Shown: piece after piece, positions 2,794-50,144 of the stretch
Layout: each line of letters begins with the position of its first letter
Position numbering within the stretch: position 1 is the stretch's first letter
Source of the DNA: Dehalococcoidales bacterium
GTDB lineage: Bacteria; Chloroflexota; Dehalococcoidia; Dehalococcoidales; UBA2162
Length of the DNA: 64,000 nt
Assembly: GCA_034416335.1 (NCBI GenBank)
Contig: DAOULV010000019.1
Coordinates: 7,765 to 71,764, forward strand
Reading direction: 5' to 3'
Made by a program: the position numbers and the translations under genes
Notes under the pieces: generated by a model
The model's input: only the letters and a program-made list of their open reading frames with translations
Databases searched by the model: none
Told to the model about the DNA's origin: nothing

Positions 2794-4761
2794 TTAACTC
2801 TGAACCACGTCCGGTTCAACGGGACCTGTTTCAAACTGGCTGTTATAAAGTGAAGCATAGAAACCTTCGGCAGCCAGTAAATCATTGTGATTACCCTGTT
2901 CGACGATATCTCCGTCTCTCATCACGAAGATAATATCGGCATCACGGATTGTGGACAATCGATGAGCAATAACGAAACTGGTGCGCCCTTTCATAAGGTC
3001 TTCCATGGCTTTTTGTATCAGGACCTCGGTCCTGGTATCCACCGAACTGGTTGCTTCGTCCAGTATCAGTATCCTGGGATCGGCGAGAAATGCCCGTGCA
3101 ATTGTCAGAAGCTGTTTCTGCCCTTCCGAGATGTTGCTGGTTTCTTCGTTAATTTCCATATCGTAACCGTGCGGCAGCGTCCGTATAAAGTGGTCGGCGT
3201 TCGCCAGCCTTGCCGCTTCGATTACCTGATCATCGGTCGCTTCGAGGTTGCCGTATCTGATATTCTCCCGGATAGTACCGTTGAAAAGCCAGGTATCCTG
3301 CAGTACCATCCCGAACATATCCCGCAATTCCTGTCGCCTGAGTCGTTTGATATCTATCCCGTCGACTGATATTACTCCCGAATCTATATCATAGAAACGC
3401 ATCAAAAGTTTTACGATGGTCGTTTTACCGGCGCCGGTAGGTCCGACGATAGCCACTTTCTGGCCCGGATTAACTTCGGCAGAGAAATTATGAATGATAA
3501 CTTCTTCCGGGTCATAGCCGAAACGGACATTCTCGAACGAAACGTTTCCATTGACTGCTGCTAACTTAACCGCATCGGCGGTATCCGGGATTTCTTCTTC
3601 TTCCTCGAGGAATTCGAATACCCGTTCGGCTGCGGCAGCCGTCGCCTGTAATATGTTGGCGATATTCGCCACCTGAGCAATTGGCTGGGTAAAATTCCTG
3701 ACGTACGCGATAAATGCCAGTATATCACCGACTCCGATCGTACCCCGTACCGCCAGGTATCCGCCGAGAATGCTTACCACAACATAGGACAGATTTCCTA
3801 TGAAGGTCATAATCGGCATCATCATTCCCGAGAGGAACTGTGATTTCCACCCGGCTTTGTAGAGTTCATCGTTCAGGTGGTCGAATTTACTGATAGATTT
3901 CTCTTCACCATTAAACGCCTTCATTATGATGTGGCCGCCGTACATCTCCTCTACATGCCCGTTTACATGTCCCAGGTATGCCTGCTGGCTTCGGAAATAA
4001 CGCTGGGATTTTCTGACCACAATACTCACCAGTCCCGCTGAAAGGGGAAGGATTACCAGGGCGACCAGAGTCATCAGCCAGCTTATCGTCAGCATCATGA
4101 CGAGGATTCCGACGATTGTCGTTACCGAGGTAACTATCTGAGTCATATTCTGTGTCAACGTCATACTGACCGTATCCACATCATTGGCTACACGACTCTG
4201 TACTTCGCCGTGAGTTTTGGTATCGAAATATTTCAGGGGCAGCCGTTTTATCTTTTCGGCAATATTTCTCCGGAACATATATGTTATCTTCATGGCGATG
4301 CCGGACATTATCCAGCCCTGAATGTAATTAAAGATGGCACTGGCTACATAGAGACCGACCAGTAAAACGGCAATACGACCGATATACTCGAAATCTATTG
4401 CCGCCCCGGGAACGTGCATTGCCTTGGCAACAACACCCTCGAACAACCTGGTAGTAGCGTTTCCAAGTAATTTCGGCCCGATAATAGCAAAGACGGTGCT
4501 GGCAATAGCGAACAGGAGTACTATAGCCAGTGAAAAACGGTACGGTTTTAAATATTTCAGCAGGGTCCTGAAGGTGTTCTTGAAACTCTTTGGTTTGTCA
4601 CCGGACATCATCCCGGCAGCCATCGGGCCTCCGCCCATCGGCCCACCGCCCATAGGTCTTCCACCCATCGAACCGCCGCCGGGTCCACGCATCGGCATGG
4701 AACCCGTCGACCCCTCGCGTGGAGGACTGCCGCCCATCGGTCCGTTACCTCTCTGCATCAT
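2794..4761 (-). CDS. ABC exporter, fused permease/ATPase subunit, with a Gly/Pro/Met-rich N-terminal extension
   Basis: 655 aa. It has six TM segments, Walker A GPTGAGKTT, signature SEGQKQ and Walker B ILILDEATS. Its start overlaps the upstream stop as ATGA. Confidence 0.9.
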   Translation of the reverse strand: MMQRGNGPMGGSPPREGSTGSMPMRGPGGGSMGGRPMGGGPMGGGPMAAGMMSGDKPKSFKNTFRTLLKYLKPYRFSLAIVLLFAIASTVFAIIGPKLLGNATTRLFEGVVAKAMHVPGAAIDFEYIGRIAVLLVGLYVASAIFNYIQGWIMSGIAMKITYMFRRNIAEKIKRLPLKYFDTKTHGEVQSRVANDVDTVSMTLTQNMTQIVTSVTTIVGILVMMLTISWLMTLVALVILPLSAGLVSIVVRKSQRYFRSQQAYLGHVNGHVEEMYGGHIIMKAFNGEEKSISKFDHLNDELYKAGWKSQFLSGMMMPIMTFIGNLSYVVVSILGGYLAVRGTIGVGDILAFIAYVRNFTQPIAQVANIANILQATAAAAERVFEFLEEEEEIPDTADAVKLAAVNGNVSFENVRFGYDPEEVIIHNFSAEVNPGQKVAIVGPTGAGKTTIVKLLMRFYDIDSGVISVDGIDIKRLRRQELRDMFGMVLQDTWLFNGTIRENIRYGNLEATDDQVIEAARLANADHFIRTLPHGYDMEINEETSNISEGQKQLLTIARAFLADPRILILDEATSSVDTRTEVLIQKAMEDLMKGRTSFVIAHRLSTIRDADIIFVMRDGDIVEQGNHNDLLAAEGFYASLYNSQFETGPVEPDVVQS

Positions 4762-7068: not shown

Positions 7069-7506
7069 TTAAAGTTTCTCGCCTATCTCTCTGAGTGTTT
7101 CCAGTGCATCCGACATGTCTGAAAGTTCTTCCGGTGTCAGACATGATAGTTTCTCTTTAATGTTCTGTTTTACTTTGTTTCTTACGTCTTCCAGTAAAGT
7201 GCCACCGTATTTCGTCAGTACTATATTGATAACTCGCCTGTCTTTTTCATCAGGGTGCCTTTCCACCACCCCCAGCTCGACCAGTTTATCGATCAGGGAC
7301 GTTATCTGCGACTTGCTTATCGACGTTATCCTGGCAATCTCGGAAACCGTCATACTCTGATGGCTGACTATCTCCATGATTGAGAAATGAAGGCGGGTAA
7401 GATCGCCGGTAACACCCCCGAGGTCCATCCTGAGTAAATTCCTGTGAAAAACAGGAAGAACCTTCGCCATACTGCTTAAAATATTGTCTATACTTCCGTT
7501 TTCCAT
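7069..7506 (-). CDS. MarR family transcriptional regulator
   Basis: 145 aa. A winged-HTH core (MTVSEIARITSISKSQITSLIDKLVELGVVERHPDEKDRR) lies directly upstream of the ABC pair on the same strand. Confidence 0.85.
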   Translation of the reverse strand: MENGSIDNILSSMAKVLPVFHRNLLRMDLGGVTGDLTRLHFSIMEIVSHQSMTVSEIARITSISKSQITSLIDKLVELGVVERHPDEKDRRVINIVLTKYGGTLLEDVRNKVKQNIKEKLSCLTPEELSDMSDALETLREIGEKL

Positions 7507-7729: not shown

Positions 7730-7770
7730 AAAGAGTTTGAGAGAGGGGCTTCGCCCCTCTCTCTTATTTA

Positions 7771-41268: not shown

Positions 41269-41353
41269 TGGTGGGGAAGGAGGGACTCGAACCCTCACGC
41301 ATTGCTGCACCAGATCCTAAGTCTGGCCCGTCTGCCAGTTCCGGCACTCCCCC
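41269..41353 (-). tRNA. tRNA-Leu (anticodon TAG), CCA-encoded, long variable arm
   Basis: The reverse complement folds with acceptor GGGGGAG/CTTCCCC, anticodon stem CCAGA/TCTGG with loop CTTAGGA, and T-arm GAGGG-TTCGAGT-CCCTC. It ends in ACCA. Confidence 0.9.
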
Positions 41354-43525: not shown

Positions 43526-44710
43526 CTAGTCGATGACTTTTTCCTTTACCAGACGATCGAACTCATCGTCGGCGACCCCGAGCAGTTCCTTGAATACATA
43601 CTCGTTATGCTCGCCCAGAAGCGGAGACCGTTTTATTTCCGGATCGTATTTGGACATTTTAAAGTGATATCCTGTTTGACTTCTGTATATACCCTGGTCG
43701 GGATGTTCGATCTCCCTAAAAGTATTTCTGTGCTTTAACTGGGGGTCTTTATCCATCAAGTCTTCACCGGTCTCTACGATTCCCGCCGCTACGCCTGCCT
43801 TCTGCATCAGGTCCATTACCTCTTCAGCGGTGCGTATCGAAGTCCACTCATTGACTATGGCATCCAGTTCTTCCTCGTTTTCTTTCCTGGCCGCAAACGA
43901 AGCGTATTTCGGATCGTTTTTCATTTCAGGTTTCCCGATTACTTCGCAGAAACTTCCCCATTCGTCTTCGGTAAATACCGCGACAGCGCACCACCTGTCT
44001 TTACCCTGGCATCGGTAGGCGTTATGAGGTGCAGCGTAATCACTCTTGTTCCCCATGCGGTCCTCTATCCGGTTGTTGACCGTGTAATCGAGAATCGTGG
44101 GCGCCATAAACTGGAGACCGCCTTCATACTGCGACATATCCAGGTACTGTCCCTTACCGGTACGTCTGCGGTACTCGAGGGCAGCCATAATCGCGAGTAT
44201 GTTATATCGAGGGGCGATAAAATCGGTATATGCGCCTATCCAGCCCGGCCCCCTGTCGGGCCAGCCGAGTATGTGGTTGAATCCCACCAGGGCCGTCAGC
44301 TTGTGCCCGGAGCCCGGGTGCTTGGCATATGGACCGGTCTGTCCCTGCATGCAGGAGCTGCACATTATAATATCGGGCTTGATTTCCTTTACCACATCGT
44401 ATCCCAACCCCATTCTCTCTATCGCGCCGCCGGCAAAATTCTCGACCATGACATCGCAGAGCGCTATCAGCCGTTTGCACAGGTCGAGCCCTTCGGGTGT
44501 TGCCAGGTTAAGCGTTATTGCCTTTTTACCGGTACAGTACTGGCCGAAACTGCCGAGATGCTGTCCCATGCGCTGAATATCCATTCTTCTCCGGCTTTCG
44601 ACCCTGATTACCTCTGCTCCCAGGTCCGAAAGGTGCTTGGTGGTAAGCGGTCCCGTGAGGTGCCAGGTAAAATCGATAACTCTTATTCCTTCAAGCAATT
44701 GTTTATTCAT
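43526..44710 (-). CDS. Family III CoA-transferase (CaiB/BaiF)
   Basis: 394 aa. It has the N-terminal GIRVIDFTWHLTGPLTTKHLSDLGAEVIRVE and the MVENF..G..ERMGLGY pattern. Confidence 0.9.
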   Translation of the reverse strand: MNKQLLEGIRVIDFTWHLTGPLTTKHLSDLGAEVIRVESRRRMDIQRMGQHLGSFGQYCTGKKAITLNLATPEGLDLCKRLIALCDVMVENFAGGAIERMGLGYDVVKEIKPDIIMCSSCMQGQTGPYAKHPGSGHKLTALVGFNHILGWPDRGPGWIGAYTDFIAPRYNILAIMAALEYRRRTGKGQYLDMSQYEGGLQFMAPTILDYTVNNRIEDRMGNKSDYAAPHNAYRCQGKDRWCAVAVFTEDEWGSFCEVIGKPEMKNDPKYASFAARKENEEELDAIVNEWTSIRTAEEVMDLMQKAGVAAGIVETGEDLMDKDPQLKHRNTFREIEHPDQGIYRSQTGYHFKMSKYDPEIKRSPLLGEHNEYVFKELLGVADDEFDRLVKEKVID

Positions 44711-44732
44711 CTATCTCAAACCTCTCCGTTTC

Positions 44733-45980
44733 CTATATAGTCCCGGTCCGGGCGAGTTCATCCAGTTCTTCTCCGGTAATACCGAGTTCTTCATACACTT
44801 CTTTGTTGTGCTCACCGATAAGCGGGGCACGGCGATAAAGCCTGGGAGGCGCCACTTCCGTGCCGGAAAAAGAGCCGGGATAGGTGATTGTGTCGTTCAA
44901 CTCTGGATGTTCCAGCTCGACCCAGAAGTTACGGGCTTCAAGCTGCGGACTCGAAATCATGTCCGCCGGAGTGGAGACCGGGTATAACTGGACGCCGTAT
45001 TTAAGCGCGCCGGCAAACAGTTCGGCTTTGGTACGGGAGAGGAAGAATTTAGCCGTGGGCTCTTCGATCCGTGCCAGAACTTCGGGGTCTACATTCATCA
45101 TCCCGAAATTCGCCCAGTCGTAATTCAAGAGAAATTCATCAGCTTCGCCTTCTGCTTCCATCCATTTAACCATCGGCACGTTGGTCCGCAGCGACATCAC
45201 GCCGCCCCAGTAAAACCATGATACGTGCCCGTCTTTACAGGGCCATATCTGCGTCAGTCGTTTTCCCTTTTCATTGGTCGGCATAACCCTTTCCTGGATC
45301 CGGTGTCCCTGGTCCCAGCCCGAGGTTATGTGCTCGGTACACTGAACGATGGCTTCCTGGGTGGAAACATCGACCTGCTGCCCTTCGCCGGTTTCATGAC
45401 GATAATACAGGGCGGTAAGTGCGCCCTGGGCGCCGTCGCAGCCGGCATTCAGATAAGCCTGCGAGTGGTGGCTGAAGTGATATGGAGGACGGTCCGCGTC
45501 GCCGTATCCCGCCATGTTTCCTCCCGTCGCCCAGGCGACTATATCTGAGGTCTTATAGTCACGGTACGGCCCCGTCTGGCCGAAGGGACTGATAGAGACC
45601 ATGATTATCCCCGGATTTATTTTCTCAAGGTCTGAATAACCCAGTCCAAGGCTGTCCATGTAACCCGGTGGAAAGGACTCTATGACGAAATCGGTTGTCT
45701 TGACCAGCTTTCTGAATATATTCCGCCCTTCTTCCTTCTCGATATCGAGGGTAATCCCCCTCTTGCTGGTGTTCAGGGCGAACCAGAAGAGGCTCTTTTC
45801 CAGGTCGACTTCATCGTGATAAAAAGGTCCCAGGTTACGGGCAGCATCACCGCCCGGTTTTTCTATCTTGATAACATCCGCTCCGAGATCTCCGAGTATC
45901 TTACCGCACAACAGCCCTTTTTCATCGGCCAGGTCCAGGACCCGGTAAGGTCCCAGAACACTGTCTGTATTATCCTGCAT
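44733..45980 (-). CDS. Family III CoA-transferase (CaiB/BaiF), second paralog
   Basis: The start is moved to ATG 45980 (AAGGAG RBS), giving MQDNTDSVLGPYRVLDLADEKGLLCGKILGDLGADVIKIE. Confidence 0.9.
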   Translation of the reverse strand: MQDNTDSVLGPYRVLDLADEKGLLCGKILGDLGADVIKIEKPGGDAARNLGPFYHDEVDLEKSLFWFALNTSKRGITLDIEKEEGRNIFRKLVKTTDFVIESFPPGYMDSLGLGYSDLEKINPGIIMVSISPFGQTGPYRDYKTSDIVAWATGGNMAGYGDADRPPYHFSHHSQAYLNAGCDGAQGALTALYYRHETGEGQQVDVSTQEAIVQCTEHITSGWDQGHRIQERVMPTNEKGKRLTQIWPCKDGHVSWFYWGGVMSLRTNVPMVKWMEAEGEADEFLLNYDWANFGMMNVDPEVLARIEEPTAKFFLSRTKAELFAGALKYGVQLYPVSTPADMISSPQLEARNFWVELEHPELNDTITYPGSFSGTEVAPPRLYRRAPLIGEHNKEVYEELGITGEELDELARTGTI

Positions 45981-46085
45981 ACGCTGACTCCTTTCACAGT
46001 TGACCGGTAAACCCTGTCGAAACAAAAGAATACAGAATACCCTGTCTGATGTCAAACCGGATTAATGCAGGTTTTGTTTGTATCT

Positions 46086-46687: not shown

Positions 46688-47227
46688 CTACTTCCAGCAG
46701 CCCCGCAAAAACCTTTTATCGATGGTAATGATTCTATCCGCCACTTCTCTCAAGGGGCGTGATGTTTTCTCCTTGCCGAAGAGCGCGACTTCGATGTTCT
46801 TGCCGTTATCTTTAACCGCCTGGAGAGCTCCTACATAATCGCTGTCGCCAGCGACCAGTACACCTACGTCGTAATTATTCTTAAAACTGTGGGTAAGAAG
46901 ATCGGTTGTCAGCTGGATATCGACTCCTTTTTCATAAGGCGGAGAATTCGGCCAGTTCTGATAGACCAGCCTGCCGAGACGCAGCTCGCAGTACGGAATA
47001 GCACTGACGCTGGCAAAAAACGCCTGCTGGTGGCGATAGCGTTCCGGTTCTTCTCTGCGCCCTACGCTGGCATTATAATAATAAATTCTTACCAGGCGCT
47101 TTTTCTCTATGATCTTTTTAACGAATTTTCCGATATCGACATCGGTCCTGTTGAAGTGTCCTTTCAGAGAATGGTACAGGTTGCTTCCGTCTATAAACAC
47201 CATCACTCTTTCTGATTGAGTCGTCAT
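46688..47227 (-). CDS. NYN domain-containing protein (LabA-like)
   Basis: 179 aa. It has VFIDGSNLYH and VLVAGDSDYVGAL, typical of the LabA/NYN PIN-like fold. Confidence 0.85.
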   Translation of the reverse strand: MTTQSERVMVFIDGSNLYHSLKGHFNRTDVDIGKFVKKIIEKKRLVRIYYYNASVGRREEPERYRHQQAFFASVSAIPYCELRLGRLVYQNWPNSPPYEKGVDIQLTTDLLTHSFKNNYDVGVLVAGDSDYVGALQAVKDNGKNIEVALFGKEKTSRPLREVADRIITIDKRFLRGCWK

Positions 47228-47419
47228 TAGAATACCTGCTTTATAATAATCATTAATTCCCGTTATTTATTATATATCCAAAGTGATAATTGTGCGAGTT
47301 TTATGGAATAATTCGTACGTATTCAGGCAGTAAAAAGCTTCATCTTATACCATATTTTTTTATACATTCCACCTGCACACCGTTGCACAAACTGACTCAA
47401 TATCATCCCAGCCTAAACC

Positions 47420-47449
47420 TTGACATCGGGTCTTTTTCTTTACTAAAAT
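47420..47449 (+). promoter_or_regulatory. Promoter TTGACA-18-TAAAAT for the sRNA/mini-ORF unit
   Basis: -35 is at 47420..47425 and -10 at 47444..47449. Confidence 0.5.
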
Positions 47450-47455
47450 AATATA

Positions 47456-47707
47456 AGGAGCTACATGCTACCACTCGAATTTGCTTCGGGAGGTGTCCCA
47501 TGAGGCTTCATGCTCTACTCGGAGTATGGCAGGTTGATTTTTAATGCCCTGCCTGAGGGCAGGGCGGCCGGAAATCGAGCTTGACTCGTTCGAGTAAGTT
47601 GAGGACCGGTATCGATTTCGATGGTCCATTGCGGTTCTATTTACCGCAGGTGAGTTGAGTTCGAGAGAATTGACTGGAATGGAGGGCATTTAACCGTGCC
47701 CTCCATT
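47456..47707 (+). ncRNA. Candidate structured sRNA of about 250 nt, unclassified, possibly dual-function with two mini-ORFs
   Basis: It has its own promoter and an 11-bp-stem terminator at 47678..47707. Internal perfect hairpins lie at 47488..47499 and 47546..47565. SD-preceded ORFs of 12 and 14 codons lie at 47465..47503 and 47500..47544. Confidence 0.4.
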
Positions 47708-47735
47708 ATTTATACACCTGTCTTTTTTCCTGAAT

Positions 47736-47765
47736 TTGAACACACTCGCACCTACCCGGTATAAT
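47736..47765 (+). promoter_or_regulatory. Putative promoter TTGAAC-18-TATAAT for the DUF1893/AKR/MBL operon
   Basis: -35 is at 47736..47741 and -10 at 47760..47765. It lies downstream of the sRNA terminator. Confidence 0.4.
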
Positions 47766-47798
47766 TTAATTATCCGGACATTCCCTGATAAGAGCTGT

Positions 47799-48206
47799 AT
47801 GATTATGTACGAAAATTTATATGACGATTTCCTCACCAGCAACCACACCCTCAGAGTATATGAAGACGGCAGCCTGCTGTTTTCATCCGAAAAAGACGGA
47901 CTGCTTCCGCTTGTCGAATACCTTAAATCAGGCAGCCGTCCCGAAAGGATAGTTATCTTCGATAATGTAACCGGCAACGCTGCCGCGCTTCTGTCAGCTC
48001 TCGCCGGCTGTACCGAGGTATTCAGCCCGCTGGGAAGCGAGTTAGCTGTCAAAACACTGGAAAAACACTCAATTAATTACCATATCAGCGAAACAGTAGC
48101 CTATATTCAAAAACCGAACAGTGAAGAAATGTGCCCCATGGAGAAACTTTCTCTTGAAAAAGAGCCGGATGAATTTTATAAAGCACTTATGGAGATCTTA
48201 AGTTAG
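47799..48206 (+). CDS. DUF1893 (TM1506-like) domain protein
   Basis: The start is set at ATG 47799 (MIMYENLYDD..). The pattern LRVYEDGSLLFSS..GLLPL..D.V.G.AAALL matches the family from memory. Track ORF uses TTG 47736. Confidence 0.65.
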   Translation: MIMYENLYDDFLTSNHTLRVYEDGSLLFSSEKDGLLPLVEYLKSGSRPERIVIFDNVTGNAAALLSALAGCTEVFSPLGSELAVKTLEKHSINYHISETVAYIQKPNSEEMCPMEKLSLEKEPDEFYKALMEILS

Positions 48207-48210
48207 GAGG

Positions 48211-49257
48211 ATGGATTTGGAAAAGTTAAGACTGGGTAAGACAGAGCTTATGGTAACAAAGGTAGGATTCGGGGGAATTCCTATTCAGAGACTGACCGAA
48301 GACGGAGCGGTCGAAGTGGTACGAAGGTGCATCGATCTCGGTATCAACTACCTAGATACTGCCAACGGTTATACCACCAGCGAGGAAAGAATAGGCAAAG
48401 CTGTCAAGGGGCAGCGGGAAAATCTGATAATCGCCACGAAAACAGGCGCCCGCGACCGTAAAGGAGCAGAAGAGCACCTGGAACTGAGTCTGAAGAGGTT
48501 ACAGACGGATTATATAGACCTTTATCAATTCCATGGCGTCAGTACTGCCGATCATCTGAAAAAGGTGCTGGAAGATGGACCTTATGCAGTTGCGGAAGAA
48601 GCGAAGAAAGCCGGGAAAATCAGGCATATCGCCATTACATCACACTCCAGGGAAATCGCCATGGAAGCGGTAAAAACGGATATGTTCGAATCGTGTATGT
48701 TCCCCTTCAACTTCATCGTGAATGAACCGCTGGACGACCTTATACCGCTGTGCCGCGAGCACGACGTTGGATTTATCGCGATGAAACCGATGGCCGGAGG
48801 AATGCTGGAAAATGCGACCATCGCCTTCAAGTATCTGTTTACCATCCCGGATATTGTGCCGCTTGTCGGTATCGAGAAGGTCGAAGAGATAGAAGAAATC
48901 GTCGGACTGGTCGAAGGGCCACAGGAGATGACGGAAGCCGAGAAAGCCGATATGCAGAGACTTATCGATGAACTCGGGACCAGGTTCTGCCGTCGTTGCG
49001 ATTACTGCCAGCCCTGTACCGTGGGAATTCCGATTTCACTGGTAATGACAAGTCGCAGTTTCTTCAAGCGAATGCCGCCGGAGAGATTCTTCGGGGGTAT
49101 GGTGGACGGCGCCATGGAAAAAGCTTCCGAATGTACCGAATGCGGCGAGTGCGAAACACGATGCCCGTACAATCTGCCCATCAGGGAAATGCTTGCCGAA
49201 CACGTAAAATGGTTCTTCGACGAGAAAGAAAAATACGAAACACAGGCAGCAGCATAG
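48211..49257 (+). CDS. Aldo/keto reductase with a C-terminal Fe-S (ferredoxin-like) cysteine domain
   Basis: 348 aa. It has the AKR core (GFGGIPIQR, LDTANGY, DLYQFH) plus C-terminal CRRCDYCQPC..CTECGECETRCP. Confidence 0.85.
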   Translation: MDLEKLRLGKTELMVTKVGFGGIPIQRLTEDGAVEVVRRCIDLGINYLDTANGYTTSEERIGKAVKGQRENLIIATKTGARDRKGAEEHLELSLKRLQTDYIDLYQFHGVSTADHLKKVLEDGPYAVAEEAKKAGKIRHIAITSHSREIAMEAVKTDMFESCMFPFNFIVNEPLDDLIPLCREHDVGFIAMKPMAGGMLENATIAFKYLFTIPDIVPLVGIEKVEEIEEIVGLVEGPQEMTEAEKADMQRLIDELGTRFCRRCDYCQPCTVGIPISLVMTSRSFFKRMPPERFFGGMVDGAMEKASECTECGECETRCPYNLPIREMLAEHVKWFFDEKEKYETQAAA

Positions 49258-49331
49258 AGAAATAATCCTGTCGTCCGTGATACAATACGCTTTCCAGACC
49301 CGATACTTAGAGGTATGAAAGGAGTCCTGAT

Positions 49332-50144
49332 ATGCAGAAGGTTACCGATAATGTATACGTGGAAACCGGGTTCGGCGGCAGCAACAATACCTTCGTCGTG
49401 ACCGGTGAAGGTATTGTTATGATAGACACTCCCCAGTCGCCCGACGACGCTGCGAAGTGGCAGGAAGAAATAGCCAAACATGGCACGGTAAAATACATCA
49501 TAAACTCGGAACCGCACGGCGACCATTTTACCGGTAATTACTTCTTCGAAGGCACCGTGGTAGGCCACGAGGGCGTAAGAAAAGCGGTACTGGCTGCCGA
49601 TCCCGACCAGCTCAGACAGCAGATGAAGCAGATGGCGCCCGATGCGGCTCCTATACCGGATGACTTCTGCTATAGACCTCCGGAAATAACCTTTTCGCAG
49701 AAACTTTCCCTTCATCTCGGTAACCACACCTTCGAACTCACCAACCTGCCGGGACATACTCCCTACCAGACAGCAGTCTACATACCTGAGGAAAAGGTTG
49801 TCTGCACATCCGATAACGTTGTCAACAACGTGCAGCCTTTCCTTCACCAGGCGGTGCCGTATGACTGGCTGGAATCGCTGAAGCGTTATCAGGAATACGA
49901 TGCCAACTATCTGGTACCCGGGCACGGCGAAGTCTGCACGCCGGATTACCTGCCGGAAATGAGTAAAATGGTTCAGGCATGGATAGACGCCGCGAAAGAA
50001 GCCATCGAAAAGGGAATGACCGTCGAGCAGGTCCAGGAAGACACCTCTTTACTGGAAAAACACGGTATCAGTGTAGGAAACGAACCGTTTGCCAGACGTG
50101 TAGTGGGCATCAGTATGACGCGGCTGCTTGAAGTACTGAAATAA
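49332..50144 (+). CDS. MBL-fold metallo-hydrolase
   Basis: 270 aa. It has the NSEPHGDHFTGN metal motif and LPGHTP. Confidence 0.8.
   Translation: MQKVTDNVYVETGFGGSNNTFVVTGEGIVMIDTPQSPDDAAKWQEEIAKHGTVKYIINSEPHGDHFTGNYFFEGTVVGHEGVRKAVLAADPDQLRQQMKQMAPDAAPIPDDFCYRPPEITFSQKLSLHLGNHTFELTNLPGHTPYQTAVYIPEEKVVCTSDNVVNNVQPFLHQAVPYDWLESLKRYQEYDANYLVPGHGEVCTPDYLPEMSKMVQAWIDAAKEAIEKGMTVEQVQEDTSLLEKHGISVGNEPFARRVVGISMTRLLEVLK

Follow-up and report, generated by a model that had tools for sequence, protein, structure and literature searches.

A conserved mini-ORF fused to a structured, free-standing RNA in Dehalococcoidia: a new RNA family with a possible role in ribosome pausing

Results

A predicted transcription unit in a Dehalococcoidales genome

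Here we report the analysis of a small transcription unit in a 64,000-nt stretch of DNA, referred to below as the window, from a Dehalococcoidales bacterium (assembly GCA_034416335.1, contig DAOULV010000019.1, forward-strand positions 7,765 to 71,764). The unit occupies approximately positions 47456-47712 of the plus strand and is predicted to give an RNA of ~255 nt from its own promoter and terminator. It is surrounded by genes for an NYN protein, a DUF1893/TM1506 protein, an aldo/keto reductase with an Fe-S tail and a metallo-beta-lactamase-fold protein, identities that agree with those given in an earlier, sequence-only reading of the same DNA. Each sequence feature listed in that reading was found at its position. 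The elements of the unit, as revised here, are as follows.

47420..47449, plus strand: sigma-70-type promoter, with -35 box TTGACA (47420-47425), an 18-nt spacer and -10 box TAAAAT (47444-47449)
47457..47509, plus strand: imperfect 5' hairpin over the translation start region, predicted from the fold and from compensatory changes
47465..47503, plus strand: first mini-ORF, MLPLEFASGGVP, not conserved and a by-product of a strand of the 5' hairpin
47488..47495, plus strand: Shine-Dalgarno sequence GGGAGGTG, 4 nt ahead of the ATG of the conserved mini-ORF
47500..47544, plus strand: conserved (second) mini-ORF of 14 codons, MRLHALLGVWQVDF followed by a TAA stop, with the Asp13 codon at 47536-47538
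47546..47565, plus strand: hairpin H2, GCCCUGCC-UGAG-GGCAGGGC, beginning 10 nt past the first base of the Asp13 codon
47574..47665, plus strand: three-way-junction domain of helices P3, P4 and P5, predicted from compensatory changes
47575-47587 with 47652-47664, plus strand: closing helix P3, with compensatory changes in 14 of 14 pairs (95 sequences)
47588-47603, plus strand: single-stranded junction of the three-way-junction domain
47604-47628, plus strand: hairpin P4, with compensatory changes in every pair (95 sequences)
47631-47649, plus strand: hairpin P5, likewise with compensatory changes in every pair (95 sequences)
47650-47654, plus strand: conserved junction GUGAG
47678..47716, plus strand: intrinsic terminator, with a stem of 11-12 bp (47678-47707) and a T-rich tail

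The promoter matches the consensus at 11 of 12 positions and is the top-scoring site of the region, placing the predicted transcript start at ~47455-47457. An upstream TTGAC is present in 88 of 93 copies of the family; in 75 of these it lies 29 to 32 nt ahead of the model start. At the other end, AATGGAGGGCA (47678-47688) pairs with TGCCCTCCATT (47697-47707) and is followed by ATTATTTAT; this terminator folds at -19.6 kcal/mol, and in 95 sequences all 11 of its 11 pairs have compensatory changes and 96% of the cells are paired. It was missed by the scan tool because the T-run is weak in the window copy; the terminators of relatives mostly have 5-6 T, and the longest T-run reaches at least 5 in 64 of 95 copies. 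Homology among relatives extends from the -10 box through the end of the terminator, and a second promoter-like site lies at 47736-47765, ahead of the downstream operon. The recurrent TTGAC and the covarying terminator thus bear out the proposal that the region forms an independent promoter-to-terminator unit.

Distribution and genomic context

Searches of related genomes showed that the unit belongs to a conserved family, which is present once in the window's own genome and was found in 144 of the 218 genomes of the order (69 of 106 genera) and in 81 of 401 genomes of a class sample. In other Chloroflexota classes its occurrence is patchy, covering at least 9 families. A pattern scan recovered the element in at least 119 species, all of them Chloroflexota MAGs and most labelled Dehalococcoidia or Dehalococcoidales; among the 119 loci, 113 are near-full-length, four lack the 3' domain, one is masked and one has a divergent domain. 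Two carriers are complete single-contig genomes of 3.7-3.9 Mb. In contrast, the order's complete single-contig genomes of 1.4-2.1 Mb lack the element; these may include Dehalococcoides and Dehalogenimonas, and on this ground we rejected a relationship with the three sRNAs known to be abundant in Dehalococcoides mccartyi CBDB1 (PMC12961961). An origin from phages or mobile elements was likewise set aside, given the lack of matches in viral contigs and the single copy in the genome.

The genes downstream of the element fall into 45 families among 112 loci, and in 48 of these loci (43%) the downstream gene is convergent. Since the flanking genes vary in this way, the element is better described as a free-standing gene than as a leader of the DUF1893 operon, in agreement with the initial view that the unit is not tied to that operon. 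For the family as a whole we found no specific regulated downstream gene combined with an mRNA switch, the arrangement looked for in arrest-peptide systems. The four variant loci without the 3' domain keep the mini-ORF and the hairpin at the same offset and precede genes for signal-peptide proteins by 109-148 nt, measured from ATG to ATG; from this arrangement they look like cases of leader-like use, and inspection of these four for occlusion of the downstream ribosome-binding site gave no clear pattern. Taken together, the genomic comparisons indicate that the unit is very probably a free-standing gene, single-copy in most cases, that specifies an RNA of ~255 nt and represents a previously undescribed family with a wide distribution in Dehalococcoidia and a patchy one in the rest of the Chloroflexota.

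A short peptide under amino-acid selection

The conserved mini-ORF has a clear coding signature: its entropy by codon position is 0.41/0.34/0.97, no indels occur, Val9 is encoded by all four GTN codons, and the G, V, Q, V and D residues of the core are encoded by synonymous codons across the phylum. This combination of free wobble positions, synonymous codons and intact length indicates that the peptide is under selection at the amino-acid level. The GGAGG of the Shine-Dalgarno sequence is invariant in 29 of 29 aligned relatives. The consensus of the peptide is M[RK]LHxx[LYF]GVWQVD-x, with 13-14 codons, and its core [LYF]GVWQ[VI]D is kept class- and phylum-wide, the GVWQ[VI]D part being invariant. 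A member of the same architecture described earlier from another genome and another gene neighbourhood encodes MRLHVLYGVWQVDE, which is nearly the same as MRLHALLGVWQVDF, and distant members retain GVWQVD behind an N-terminus that differs in sequence and length. Conservation stops at Asp13: codon 14 is free, and ~30% of the copies have no stop at codon 15 and continue for 5-26 further unconserved codons. All three stop codons are used (TGA 45, TAA 24, TAG 22; n=91). As in arrest peptides, the amino-acid conservation of this short ORF resides mainly in its C-terminal part. The mini-ORF is a gene missed by the genome annotation.

The sequence-only reading had proposed two translationally coupled mini-ORFs, and in the window copy the two are indeed joined by an ATGA overlap. 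Only the second of them is upheld by comparison with relatives. The window-like overlap occurs in 11 of 92 copies, and the upstream ATG is absent in 42 of 92. Because the first mini-ORF is not conserved, its ATG is part of the CAUG:CAUG pairing of the 5' hairpin, and its AAGGAG falls, as the same reading had cautioned, at the predicted 5' end of the transcript, we reject the coupling of two ORFs.

Conserved RNA structure

The plus strand folds at -111.9 kcal/mol with z = -6.4 against shuffled sequences (z = -4.9 for the minus strand). In 95 model-fitted sequences compensatory changes were found in 60 of 68 pairs, and in a MAFFT alignment not fitted to the model 37 pairs are compensatory and 88.8% of the cells are paired, compared with 35-45% when the partners are slid. 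This covariation supports the 5' hairpin, the GC hairpin H2, the three-way-junction domain and the terminator, so that the initial description of the unit as structured held up.

The 5' hairpin alone folds at -22.1 kcal/mol, with 83-86% of its cells paired in the MAFFT alignment, and encloses the start of the conserved mini-ORF in three sub-helices. In its outer helix GGAGCU (47457-62) pairs with GGCUUC (47504-09), which covers codons 2-4, and 5 of 6 pairs have compensatory changes; CAUG (47464-67) pairs with the CAUG of the start codon (47499-502); and UACC-CUCGAA (47469-79) pairs with UUCGGG-GGUG (47485-95) at the ribosome-binding site. Across 95 sequences these three are paired in 91.6%, 66.1% and 79.1% of the cells, respectively. 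The hairpin GGGA-GGTG-TCCC described earlier at 47488-47499 is present in the window, but it is not conserved and makes use of the spacer that separates the ribosome-binding site from the ATG, which is itself variable.

The perfect hairpin noticed at 47546-47565 is conserved as H2. It folds at -16.3 kcal/mol, with 95.9% of the cells paired and compensatory changes in 6 of 8 pairs. In 86 of 92 copies H2 begins 10 nt past the first nucleotide of the Asp codon, irrespective of whether a stop follows. The GCCC/GGGC at the base of H2 is nearly invariant, which means that its sequence is kept and not its pairing alone, and hints at a further, unexplained role. Downstream of H2, the three-way-junction domain adopts the same shape when folded on its own (-38.3 kcal/mol). 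The suggestion that the distal segments CTCGAATTTG and TGAGTTCGAG close the molecule was wrong, since both have other, covarying partners: CTCGAA pairs with TTCGGG of the ribosome-binding-site region, and TGAGTTCGAG pairs with TCGAGCTTGACTC at 47575-47587.

Further pairings were examined. A helix between the ORF and the linker, seen in the minimum-energy fold of the window copy, was discarded, being unconserved and having duplex energies equal to those of shuffled sequences (p = 0.92). We detected no alternative pairing, conserved among relatives, through which a stall could be transmitted to the 3' domain or the terminator. The use of H2 or the terminator as an antiterminator switch was rejected as well, as the terminator arms vary independently of H2. 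A covariation scan for extra pseudoknot pairs was too noisy for a stacked signal to emerge.

Comparison with known RNA families and recoding signals

A scan of the whole window with Rfam 15 at the gathering score returned a tRNA at 41272-41353 and nothing else. In region 47200-47850 at E <= 10 the single hit was D12-methyl (14 bits, E = 7.2, gathering score 57), and eleven distant members at E <= 0.1 gave a lone sub-threshold ctRNA match, apparently to a terminator hairpin. The initial impression that the element matches none of 6S, SRP, tmRNA, RNase P, T-box or riboswitch consensus sequences was sustained by these scans of the window and of distant members, which assign it to no Rfam family. 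Literature searches on the peptide motif and on Dehalococcoidia sRNAs or small ORFs retrieved nothing relevant.

Individual candidates were also considered. ARAGORN finds no tRNA or tmRNA in 47300-47800, the tmRNA is located elsewhere in the genome, and the ORF has a ribosome-binding site and an AUG of its own, unlike the tag ORF of tmRNA, which has no start codon. 6S RNA is a rod of about 150-200 nt whose 5' and 3' ends pair in a closing stem around a central bubble, a shape that the fold here does not have, and the end-closing pairing is not conserved; the Rfam 6S model matches nothing anywhere in the genome, so 6S RNA is excluded by shape and by the ORF. With E. coli and B. subtilis queries, tblastn detected no CsrA or Hfq homologue at E <= 0.01 in this 94%-complete genome, and a sponge of the CsrB/RsmZ type was dismissed for want of a CsrA match and because the GGA motifs, on reading the sequence, are mostly in stems. 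An attenuator of the trpL/hisL type was rejected, as there are no runs of regulatory codons and no conserved competitor of the terminator, and the downstream genes are variable. Among recoding signals, a bypass of the T4 gene 60 type, which calls for matched take-off and landing codons, was rejected because at most 26% of the members match codon 13 or 14 at any downstream alignment column, a bacterial SECIS because of the mixed stop codons, and -1 frameshifting for lack of a conserved slippery heptamer.

Discussion

The comparative data make it very likely that the ~255-nt RNA is a message and a structured RNA at once. As the best explanation we tentatively favour a mini-ORF that may serve as a ribosome-pausing module in cis, coupled to a structured sRNA. 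This explanation builds on the observed conservation, coding signature, hairpin spacing, covariation and independence from neighbouring genes, and would add to them a pause, its coupling to the 3' domain and an output. The 5' hairpin is predicted to sequester the AUG together with the strong ribosome-binding site. Once Asp13 is in the P site, the upper exit tunnel would be filled by the conserved nascent chain and H2 would be located at the mouth of the mRNA channel; the bacterial mRNA channel extends 11 nt downstream of the first P-site nucleotide, and the 10-nt offset of H2 is within ~1 nt of this length. The peptide and H2 could then jointly slow the decoding of codon 14, or translocation, and the 5' hairpin could re-form behind the paused ribosome, so that no more than one ribosome could load. 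Whether paused or finally terminating, this ribosome would set the state, stability or processing of the three-way-junction RNA, which would be the trans-acting part and may bind a protein, the ribosome or other RNAs. That the peptide acts in cis rather than in free form is the most likely reading of the end of conservation at Asp13, the extended tails and the variable N-termini.

Several observations count against pausing. The 10-nt offset falls slightly short of the 11-12 nt examined in published work, no conserved pairing was found that would relay a stall to the 3' domain or the terminator, the sequence conservation at the base of H2 hints at another role, and the resemblance to PepNL and ErmBL, discussed below, is an analogy of two residues only. 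Known arrest peptides control a specific downstream gene, and most copies of the family have none. Translation could be rare, because a hairpin of -22 kcal/mol encloses both the AUG and the ribosome-binding site. A more specific proposal, which is speculative and which we regard as doubtful, is a ribosome-capturing riboregulator, in which an arrest peptide ...[LYF]GVWQVD and the hairpin would park one ribosome, and this ribosome would switch, stabilise or deliver the three-way-junction domain. A property of translation, such as an exit-tunnel metabolite, the status of a tRNA or elongation factor, or temperature, would then be read out by way of a trans-acting RNA instead of a neighbouring gene.

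Other explanations have to be weighed against the favoured one. The element could be a dual-function sRNA in the sense of SgrS, SR1 or RNAIII, with a released 14-aa peptide acting in trans on a conserved partner and a separate three-way-junction RNA acting by base-pairing or protein binding. Amino-acid-level selection on the ORF, independent covariation of the RNA domain and the stand-alone promoter and terminator signals, which as judged from the nucleotide sequence alone delimit an independent transcription unit, all agree with this possibility. We nevertheless consider it rather doubtful, as a free peptide would be unlikely to tolerate unconserved tails of 5-26 residues in ~30% of the copies or variable N-termini, and a coding role alone leaves unexplained why the hairpin keeps a constant distance from the Asp codon rather than from the stop; the lack of Hfq and CsrA homologues by tblastn bears on chaperone-dependent pairing only. 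Less probable still is that the ORF serves the biogenesis or turnover of the RNA, so that translation, or stalling followed by rescue or cleavage, would set its half-life or free the H2-junction-terminator part as a mature sRNA. The base-paired 5' end, the terminator hairpin at the 3' end and the almost constant fusion of the mini-ORF to the 3' domain (113/119 near-full-length) would suit such a role, which draws on the same architecture as the pausing explanation but overlaps with it, differing in the output alone.

The remaining three alternatives are remote. A cis-acting leader or attenuator of the DUF1893, aldo/keto reductase and metallo-beta-lactamase-fold genes, whose leader peptide would govern terminator read-through, would account for the ~14 of 112 loci, mostly from close relatives, in which the next gene in the same orientation encodes DUF1893 or the reductase, and for the resemblance of the four 3'-domain-less variants to true upstream ORFs. 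It is very improbable in view of the 45 downstream families and 48 convergent loci, the separate promoter-like site of the downstream operon in the window and the lack of regulatory codon runs and of a conserved antiterminator pairing. The chance that a divergent housekeeping RNA (6S, tmRNA, SRP or RNase P RNA) escaped the Rfam models appears slighter yet. The genome has no Rfam 6S match, Rfam likewise misses the 6S-like RNA of Dehalococcoides mccartyi (PMC12961961), and the strong consensus promoter suggests an abundant RNA. Set against this are the lack of Rfam matches to the window element and its distant members, the tmRNA elsewhere in the genome and the missing tRNA-like part, a fold that is no rod with a central bubble and whose ends do not pair, the presence of a peptide-selected ORF with a ribosome-binding site and AUG, and the absence of the element from many complete genomes of the order. 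A recoding signal (gene 60-type bypass, -1 frameshifting or SECIS) is the least credible of all; the succession of nascent peptide, stop and hairpin recalls gene 60 and UGA is the commonest stop (45/91), but landing-codon matches stay at 26% or less at any column, no slippery heptamer is conserved, all three stop codons occur, and beyond H2 the sequence contains indels and shows covariation typical of RNA.

Chloroflexota, and notably the Dehalococcoidia, abound in sediments, aquifers and the deep ocean, and most of them have not been cultured; to our knowledge almost nothing is known about their RNA-based regulation. The element described here joins three rarely combined constraints, an invariant peptide core, a codon-fixed hairpin and a covarying RNA domain. 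If it is an arrest sequence, GVWQVD would be a new motif on the short list of ribosome-stalling peptides and, as far as we know, the first on a free-standing sRNA rather than on a regulated gene. Since both the exit tunnel and the mRNA channel are conserved, the stalling hypothesis lends itself to direct testing by reconstituted translation. At a minimum, the element constitutes a well-supported new RNA family fit for Rfam.

Comparison with known systems

Dual-function sRNAs, such as SgrS/SgrT, SR1/SR1P and RNAIII/hld, release free effector peptides of 26-43 aa, and their RNA part base-pairs with known mRNA targets. Like them, the element is a stand-alone gene with its own predicted promoter and terminator, a small ORF and a structured RNA; in contrast, its peptide has 13-14 aa with a free C-terminal tail, its hairpin is hard-wired, and its conservation spans a phylum. 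In frameshift-stimulating stem-loops of the dnaX type, an offset of 11-12 nt blocks A-site tRNA binding and translocation (PMC7282821). The element similarly places a stable GC stem-loop at the entrance of the mRNA channel relative to a defined P-site codon, here at 10 nt, whereas it has no slippery sequence or second frame and pairs the hairpin with a conserved nascent peptide.

Among arrest peptides, Arg7 and Val9-Asp10 of ErmBL are critical, with Lys11 in the A site, so that a beta-branched residue and Asp are held on the P-site tRNA (PMC4935803). ErmBL and other erm and cat leaders share with the element a short leader ORF, critical last residues near the peptidyl-transferase centre and a hairpin directly downstream. 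ErmBL, however, needs a macrolide and controls ermB by a hairpin switch that frees the ribosome-binding site, whereas the mini-ORF here comes without a resistance gene or a conserved switch, and its A-site codon is free.

A further parallel is PepNL, a 14-aa arrest peptide encoded upstream of E. coli pepN, which stalls at UGA after Ile13-Asp14 with tRNA-Asp in the P site (PMC11890864). PepNL has no sequence homology with the mini-ORF peptide; its Asp is the last residue before UGA, whereas the mini-ORF has a free codon after Asp and lacks the stop in ~30% of copies; and it regulates the adjacent pepN, whereas the present unit is free-standing and fused to a structured RNA. The length of 14 codons is similar to that of PepNL, and the whole peptide would therefore be inside the exit tunnel. 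A further similarity is that the important hydrophobic residues are spread over positions 3-9, and in both peptides a beta-branched hydrophobic residue followed by Asp is found towards the C-terminal end.

Conserved architecture of the element

The element, a free-standing unit of about 255 nt at about 47456-47712 on the plus strand, belongs to an undescribed RNA-plus-peptide gene family of Chloroflexota, a conclusion that is well supported. Every feature that a sequence-only reading of 47420-47707 had listed was found in its place, including both hairpins and both mini-ORFs; thus, its observation is confirmed, but its interpretation was right only in part. The promoter that it had proposed, TTGACA-18-TAAAAT at 47420-47449, was borne out, with a score of 11/12 that no other site reached over the 2 kb scanned, and the terminator stem pairs 47678-47688 with 47697-47707. 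Of 93 copies, 88 have a TTGAC box upstream, and in 75 of these it sits between -29 and -32 relative to the model start; the -35 consensus across copies is CTTGACA, and the -10 box is TG-extended in most of them. In relatives, homology detected by nhmmer spans from the -10 box to the terminator end, the predicted limits of the transcript. The folding energy of the plus strand is -111.9 kcal/mol (z = -6.4, versus -4.9 for the minus strand). The consensus features are as follows.

Consensus structure of the element (window positions, plus strand)
47457-47509, +: 5' hairpin, pairing the transcript's first bases with codons 2-4 and CAUG with the start codon
within 47457-47509, +: ribosome-binding-site part of the 5' hairpin, ACC-CUCGAA with UUCGGG-GGU
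47546-47565, +: consensus helix H2, a GC hairpin 3' of the second mini-ORF
47575-47587 with 47652-47664, +: closing helix of the three-way junction, 13-14 bp
47604-47628 and 47631-47649, +: inner hairpins of the three-way junction, with a conserved GUGAG at the junction
47678-47707, +: terminator, consensus helix

In a MAFFT alignment of 29 sequences analyzed by RNAalifold and pair counts, 88.8% of cells are paired, compared with 35-45% when partners are slid, and compensatory changes occur at 37 pairs. Among 95 model-aligned sequences the changes affect 60 of 68 pairs, in an alignment that is fitted to the model and leans towards it. The GCCC/GGGC base of H2 is conserved in these 95 sequences beyond the needs of pairing. 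Two structural proposals of the sequence-only reading did not hold: its GGGA/TCCC hairpin is built from variable spacer, and its end-closing helix is contradicted because each strand covaries with another partner. An ORF-to-linker helix in the minimum-energy fold of the window was also rejected, being without conservation. Purines dominate the 5' arm of the terminator, which looks like a ribosome-binding site (AUGGAGGGCA), and the 3' arm carries CCUCC, the complement of the mini-ORF's own ribosome-binding site; these GGAG-like and CUCC-like arms are kept in many relatives though the stem covaries.

Conservation of the second mini-ORF

The second mini-ORF (47500-47544) is conserved at the peptide level. 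Its sequence across 30 relatives is M[RK]LHxx[LFY][GR]VWQVDx without indels, with entropies of 0.41, 0.34, and 0.97 at the three codon positions, and all four GTN codons are used for Val9. Of 30 copies, 29 encode Leu3 by CTT, which is explained by the pairing of codons 2-4 with the start of the transcript. Members from other orders and classes differ at the N-terminus in sequence and length but keep the core [LYFW]GVWQ[VI][DE] (for example, MTDRIRFGVWQVDC, MAQILYGVWQVDK, and MILKNLRALYGVWQVDN), with synonymous codons used for each of G, V, Q, V, and D. Beyond Asp13 conservation ceases, leaving residue 14 free. In 64 of 91 copies codon 15 is a stop, with each of the three stop codons represented; the others mostly continue for 5-26 unconserved codons.

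Of the two coupled mini-ORFs proposed earlier, both are present and the second is conserved, but the first is not: 42 of 92 copies have no ATG upstream, and the ATGA overlap taken to couple them exists in only 11 of 92. The ATG of the first forms one strand of the CAUG:CAUG pairing, and its AAGGAG sits at the predicted 5' end.

Distribution of the family

The 276-nt query occurs once in its own genome, and BLAST finds a match for it in 34 of 61 relatives. A genome-collection scan with a pattern derived from the second mini-ORF matched at least 119 species, all Chloroflexota MAGs and, among the matches listed, mostly labeled Dehalococcoidia or Dehalococcoidales. Near-full-length family-profile matches were found in 113 of the 119 listed loci; four of the other six have no 3' domain, one is N-masked, and one has a divergent domain. 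Of 218 genomes of the order that are at least 85% complete, 144 have the element according to a covariance model of the family, R1 (268 positions, 68 pairs; E-values rough owing to short calibration); they represent 69 of 106 genera and mostly have one copy, some having 2-4. The model also found the element in 81 of 401 genomes of a class sample, and 16 genomes from other classes of Chloroflexota matched it more weakly. A strict mini-ORF-plus-hairpin pattern had exactly one match in each of 26 of 401 phylum-sampled genomes, including nine families outside the class, and the reversed control pattern had none in these 401. Since the strict filters used on large genome sets drop weak matches, the distribution figures are lower bounds. 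The element was not found in a family of complete, single-contig genomes of the order (1.4-2.1 Mb) or in the viral contigs searched. Among multi-copy Dehalococcoidia, four genomes (G085, G131, G499, and G520) have four copies each and five (G117, G213, G378, G463, and G530) have three.

Genomic context

The neighbors were as described earlier, namely NYN, DUF1893/TM1506, an aldo/keto reductase with an Fe-S tail, and an MBL-fold protein.

Co-directional genes in the window
47799-50144, +: DUF1893/TM1506, aldo/keto reductase with C-terminal 4Fe-4S dicluster, metallo-beta-lactamase-fold protein

At 112 distinct loci, genes of 45 families occupy the first downstream position, running in the element's direction at 64 loci and convergently at 48; upstream genes are equally mixed, and DUF1893 or the reductase as the next gene is confined to close relatives plus a few other cases. 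These varied neighbors argue that the element is a gene in its own right rather than a leader of the DUF1893 operon. The DUF1893-reductase pair itself recurs in related genomes. At 43526-46055 on the minus strand, two adjoining long ORFs (394 and 440 aa) resemble family III CoA-transferases by eye only. In one lineage from another order of the class (loci L180, L187, L188, and L189), linkage is tighter than elsewhere: a gene in the same orientation, about 210-218 aa long and with a type I phosphoribosyltransferase look by eye only, starts 2-10 nt 3' of the element.

In four variant loci the mini-ORF (MRLHxLxGVWQV[DE]) is retained, together with a hairpin close to the usual offset, and the three-way-junction domain and terminator are missing.

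Variant loci
L049: mini-ORF from locus position 3895, +
L091: mini-ORF from locus position 7141, +
L119 and L127: mini-ORF on the - strand

In these loci, 109-148 nt separate the mini-ORF ATG from that of a downstream gene that has a ribosome-binding site and encodes an N-terminal signal-peptide protein. In this arrangement the module may act as a leader, a true upstream ORF. One of the signal-peptide proteins carries a HEMGH zinc-protease motif.

Alternative explanations and proposed mechanism

No Rfam family matches the element at gathering score, and at E <= 10 there is a single 14-bit chance match; scanning the elements of distant members found no family there either. A divergent housekeeping RNA is disfavored and most improbable, and the 6S reading sits poorly with the fold, with the ORF, and with so patchy a distribution. 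Another 6S gene gives no ground for dismissal, because the Rfam 6S model finds nothing anywhere in the window's own genome, which is 94% complete. This absence agrees with Dehalococcoides mccartyi, whose 6S-like RNA escapes Rfam (PMC12961961). A cis attenuator is likewise disfavored, with a chance that is small though slightly better, and recoding signals, also disfavored, are hardly credible.

It is plausible that the element works by ribosome pausing, in which the nascent peptide and H2 would jointly pause the ribosome. A released micropeptide with a separately acting RNA is a lesser but real possibility; free C-terminal tails, variable N-termini, and an H2 spacing tied to the Asp codon rather than the stop argue instead for a nascent chain acting in cis, and conservation across the phylum would suit a receptor that varies as little as the ribosome does. 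A variant of the pausing reading, in which translation acts only in RNA processing or turnover, seems rather unlikely.

Regardless of whether a stop intervenes, H2 starts exactly 10 nt past the first base of the Asp13 codon (47536-47538) in 86 of 92 copies, and the four variants, with another hairpin sequence, show about 7-10 nt. Counted from the first P-site nucleotide, the bacterial mRNA channel holds 11 nt in the downstream direction (PMC7282821), so Asp13 in the P site would put H2 at the channel mouth, an offset that is within about 1 nt of the geometry tested in that work. The last conserved residue would then be on the P-site tRNA, with the free codon 14 in the A site. A conserved alternative pairing relaying the pause to the three-way junction or terminator was looked for, and none was found.

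Two known short arrest peptides offer a two-residue analogy for the proposed pause. PepNL is a 14-aa arrest peptide ending in Ile13-Asp14-UGA, with Asp on the P-site tRNA (PMC11890864), and ErmBL has Val9-Asp10 with Lys11 in the A site (PMC4935803). Both, like the mini-ORF, have a beta-branched residue followed by Asp, which they carry on the P-site tRNA.
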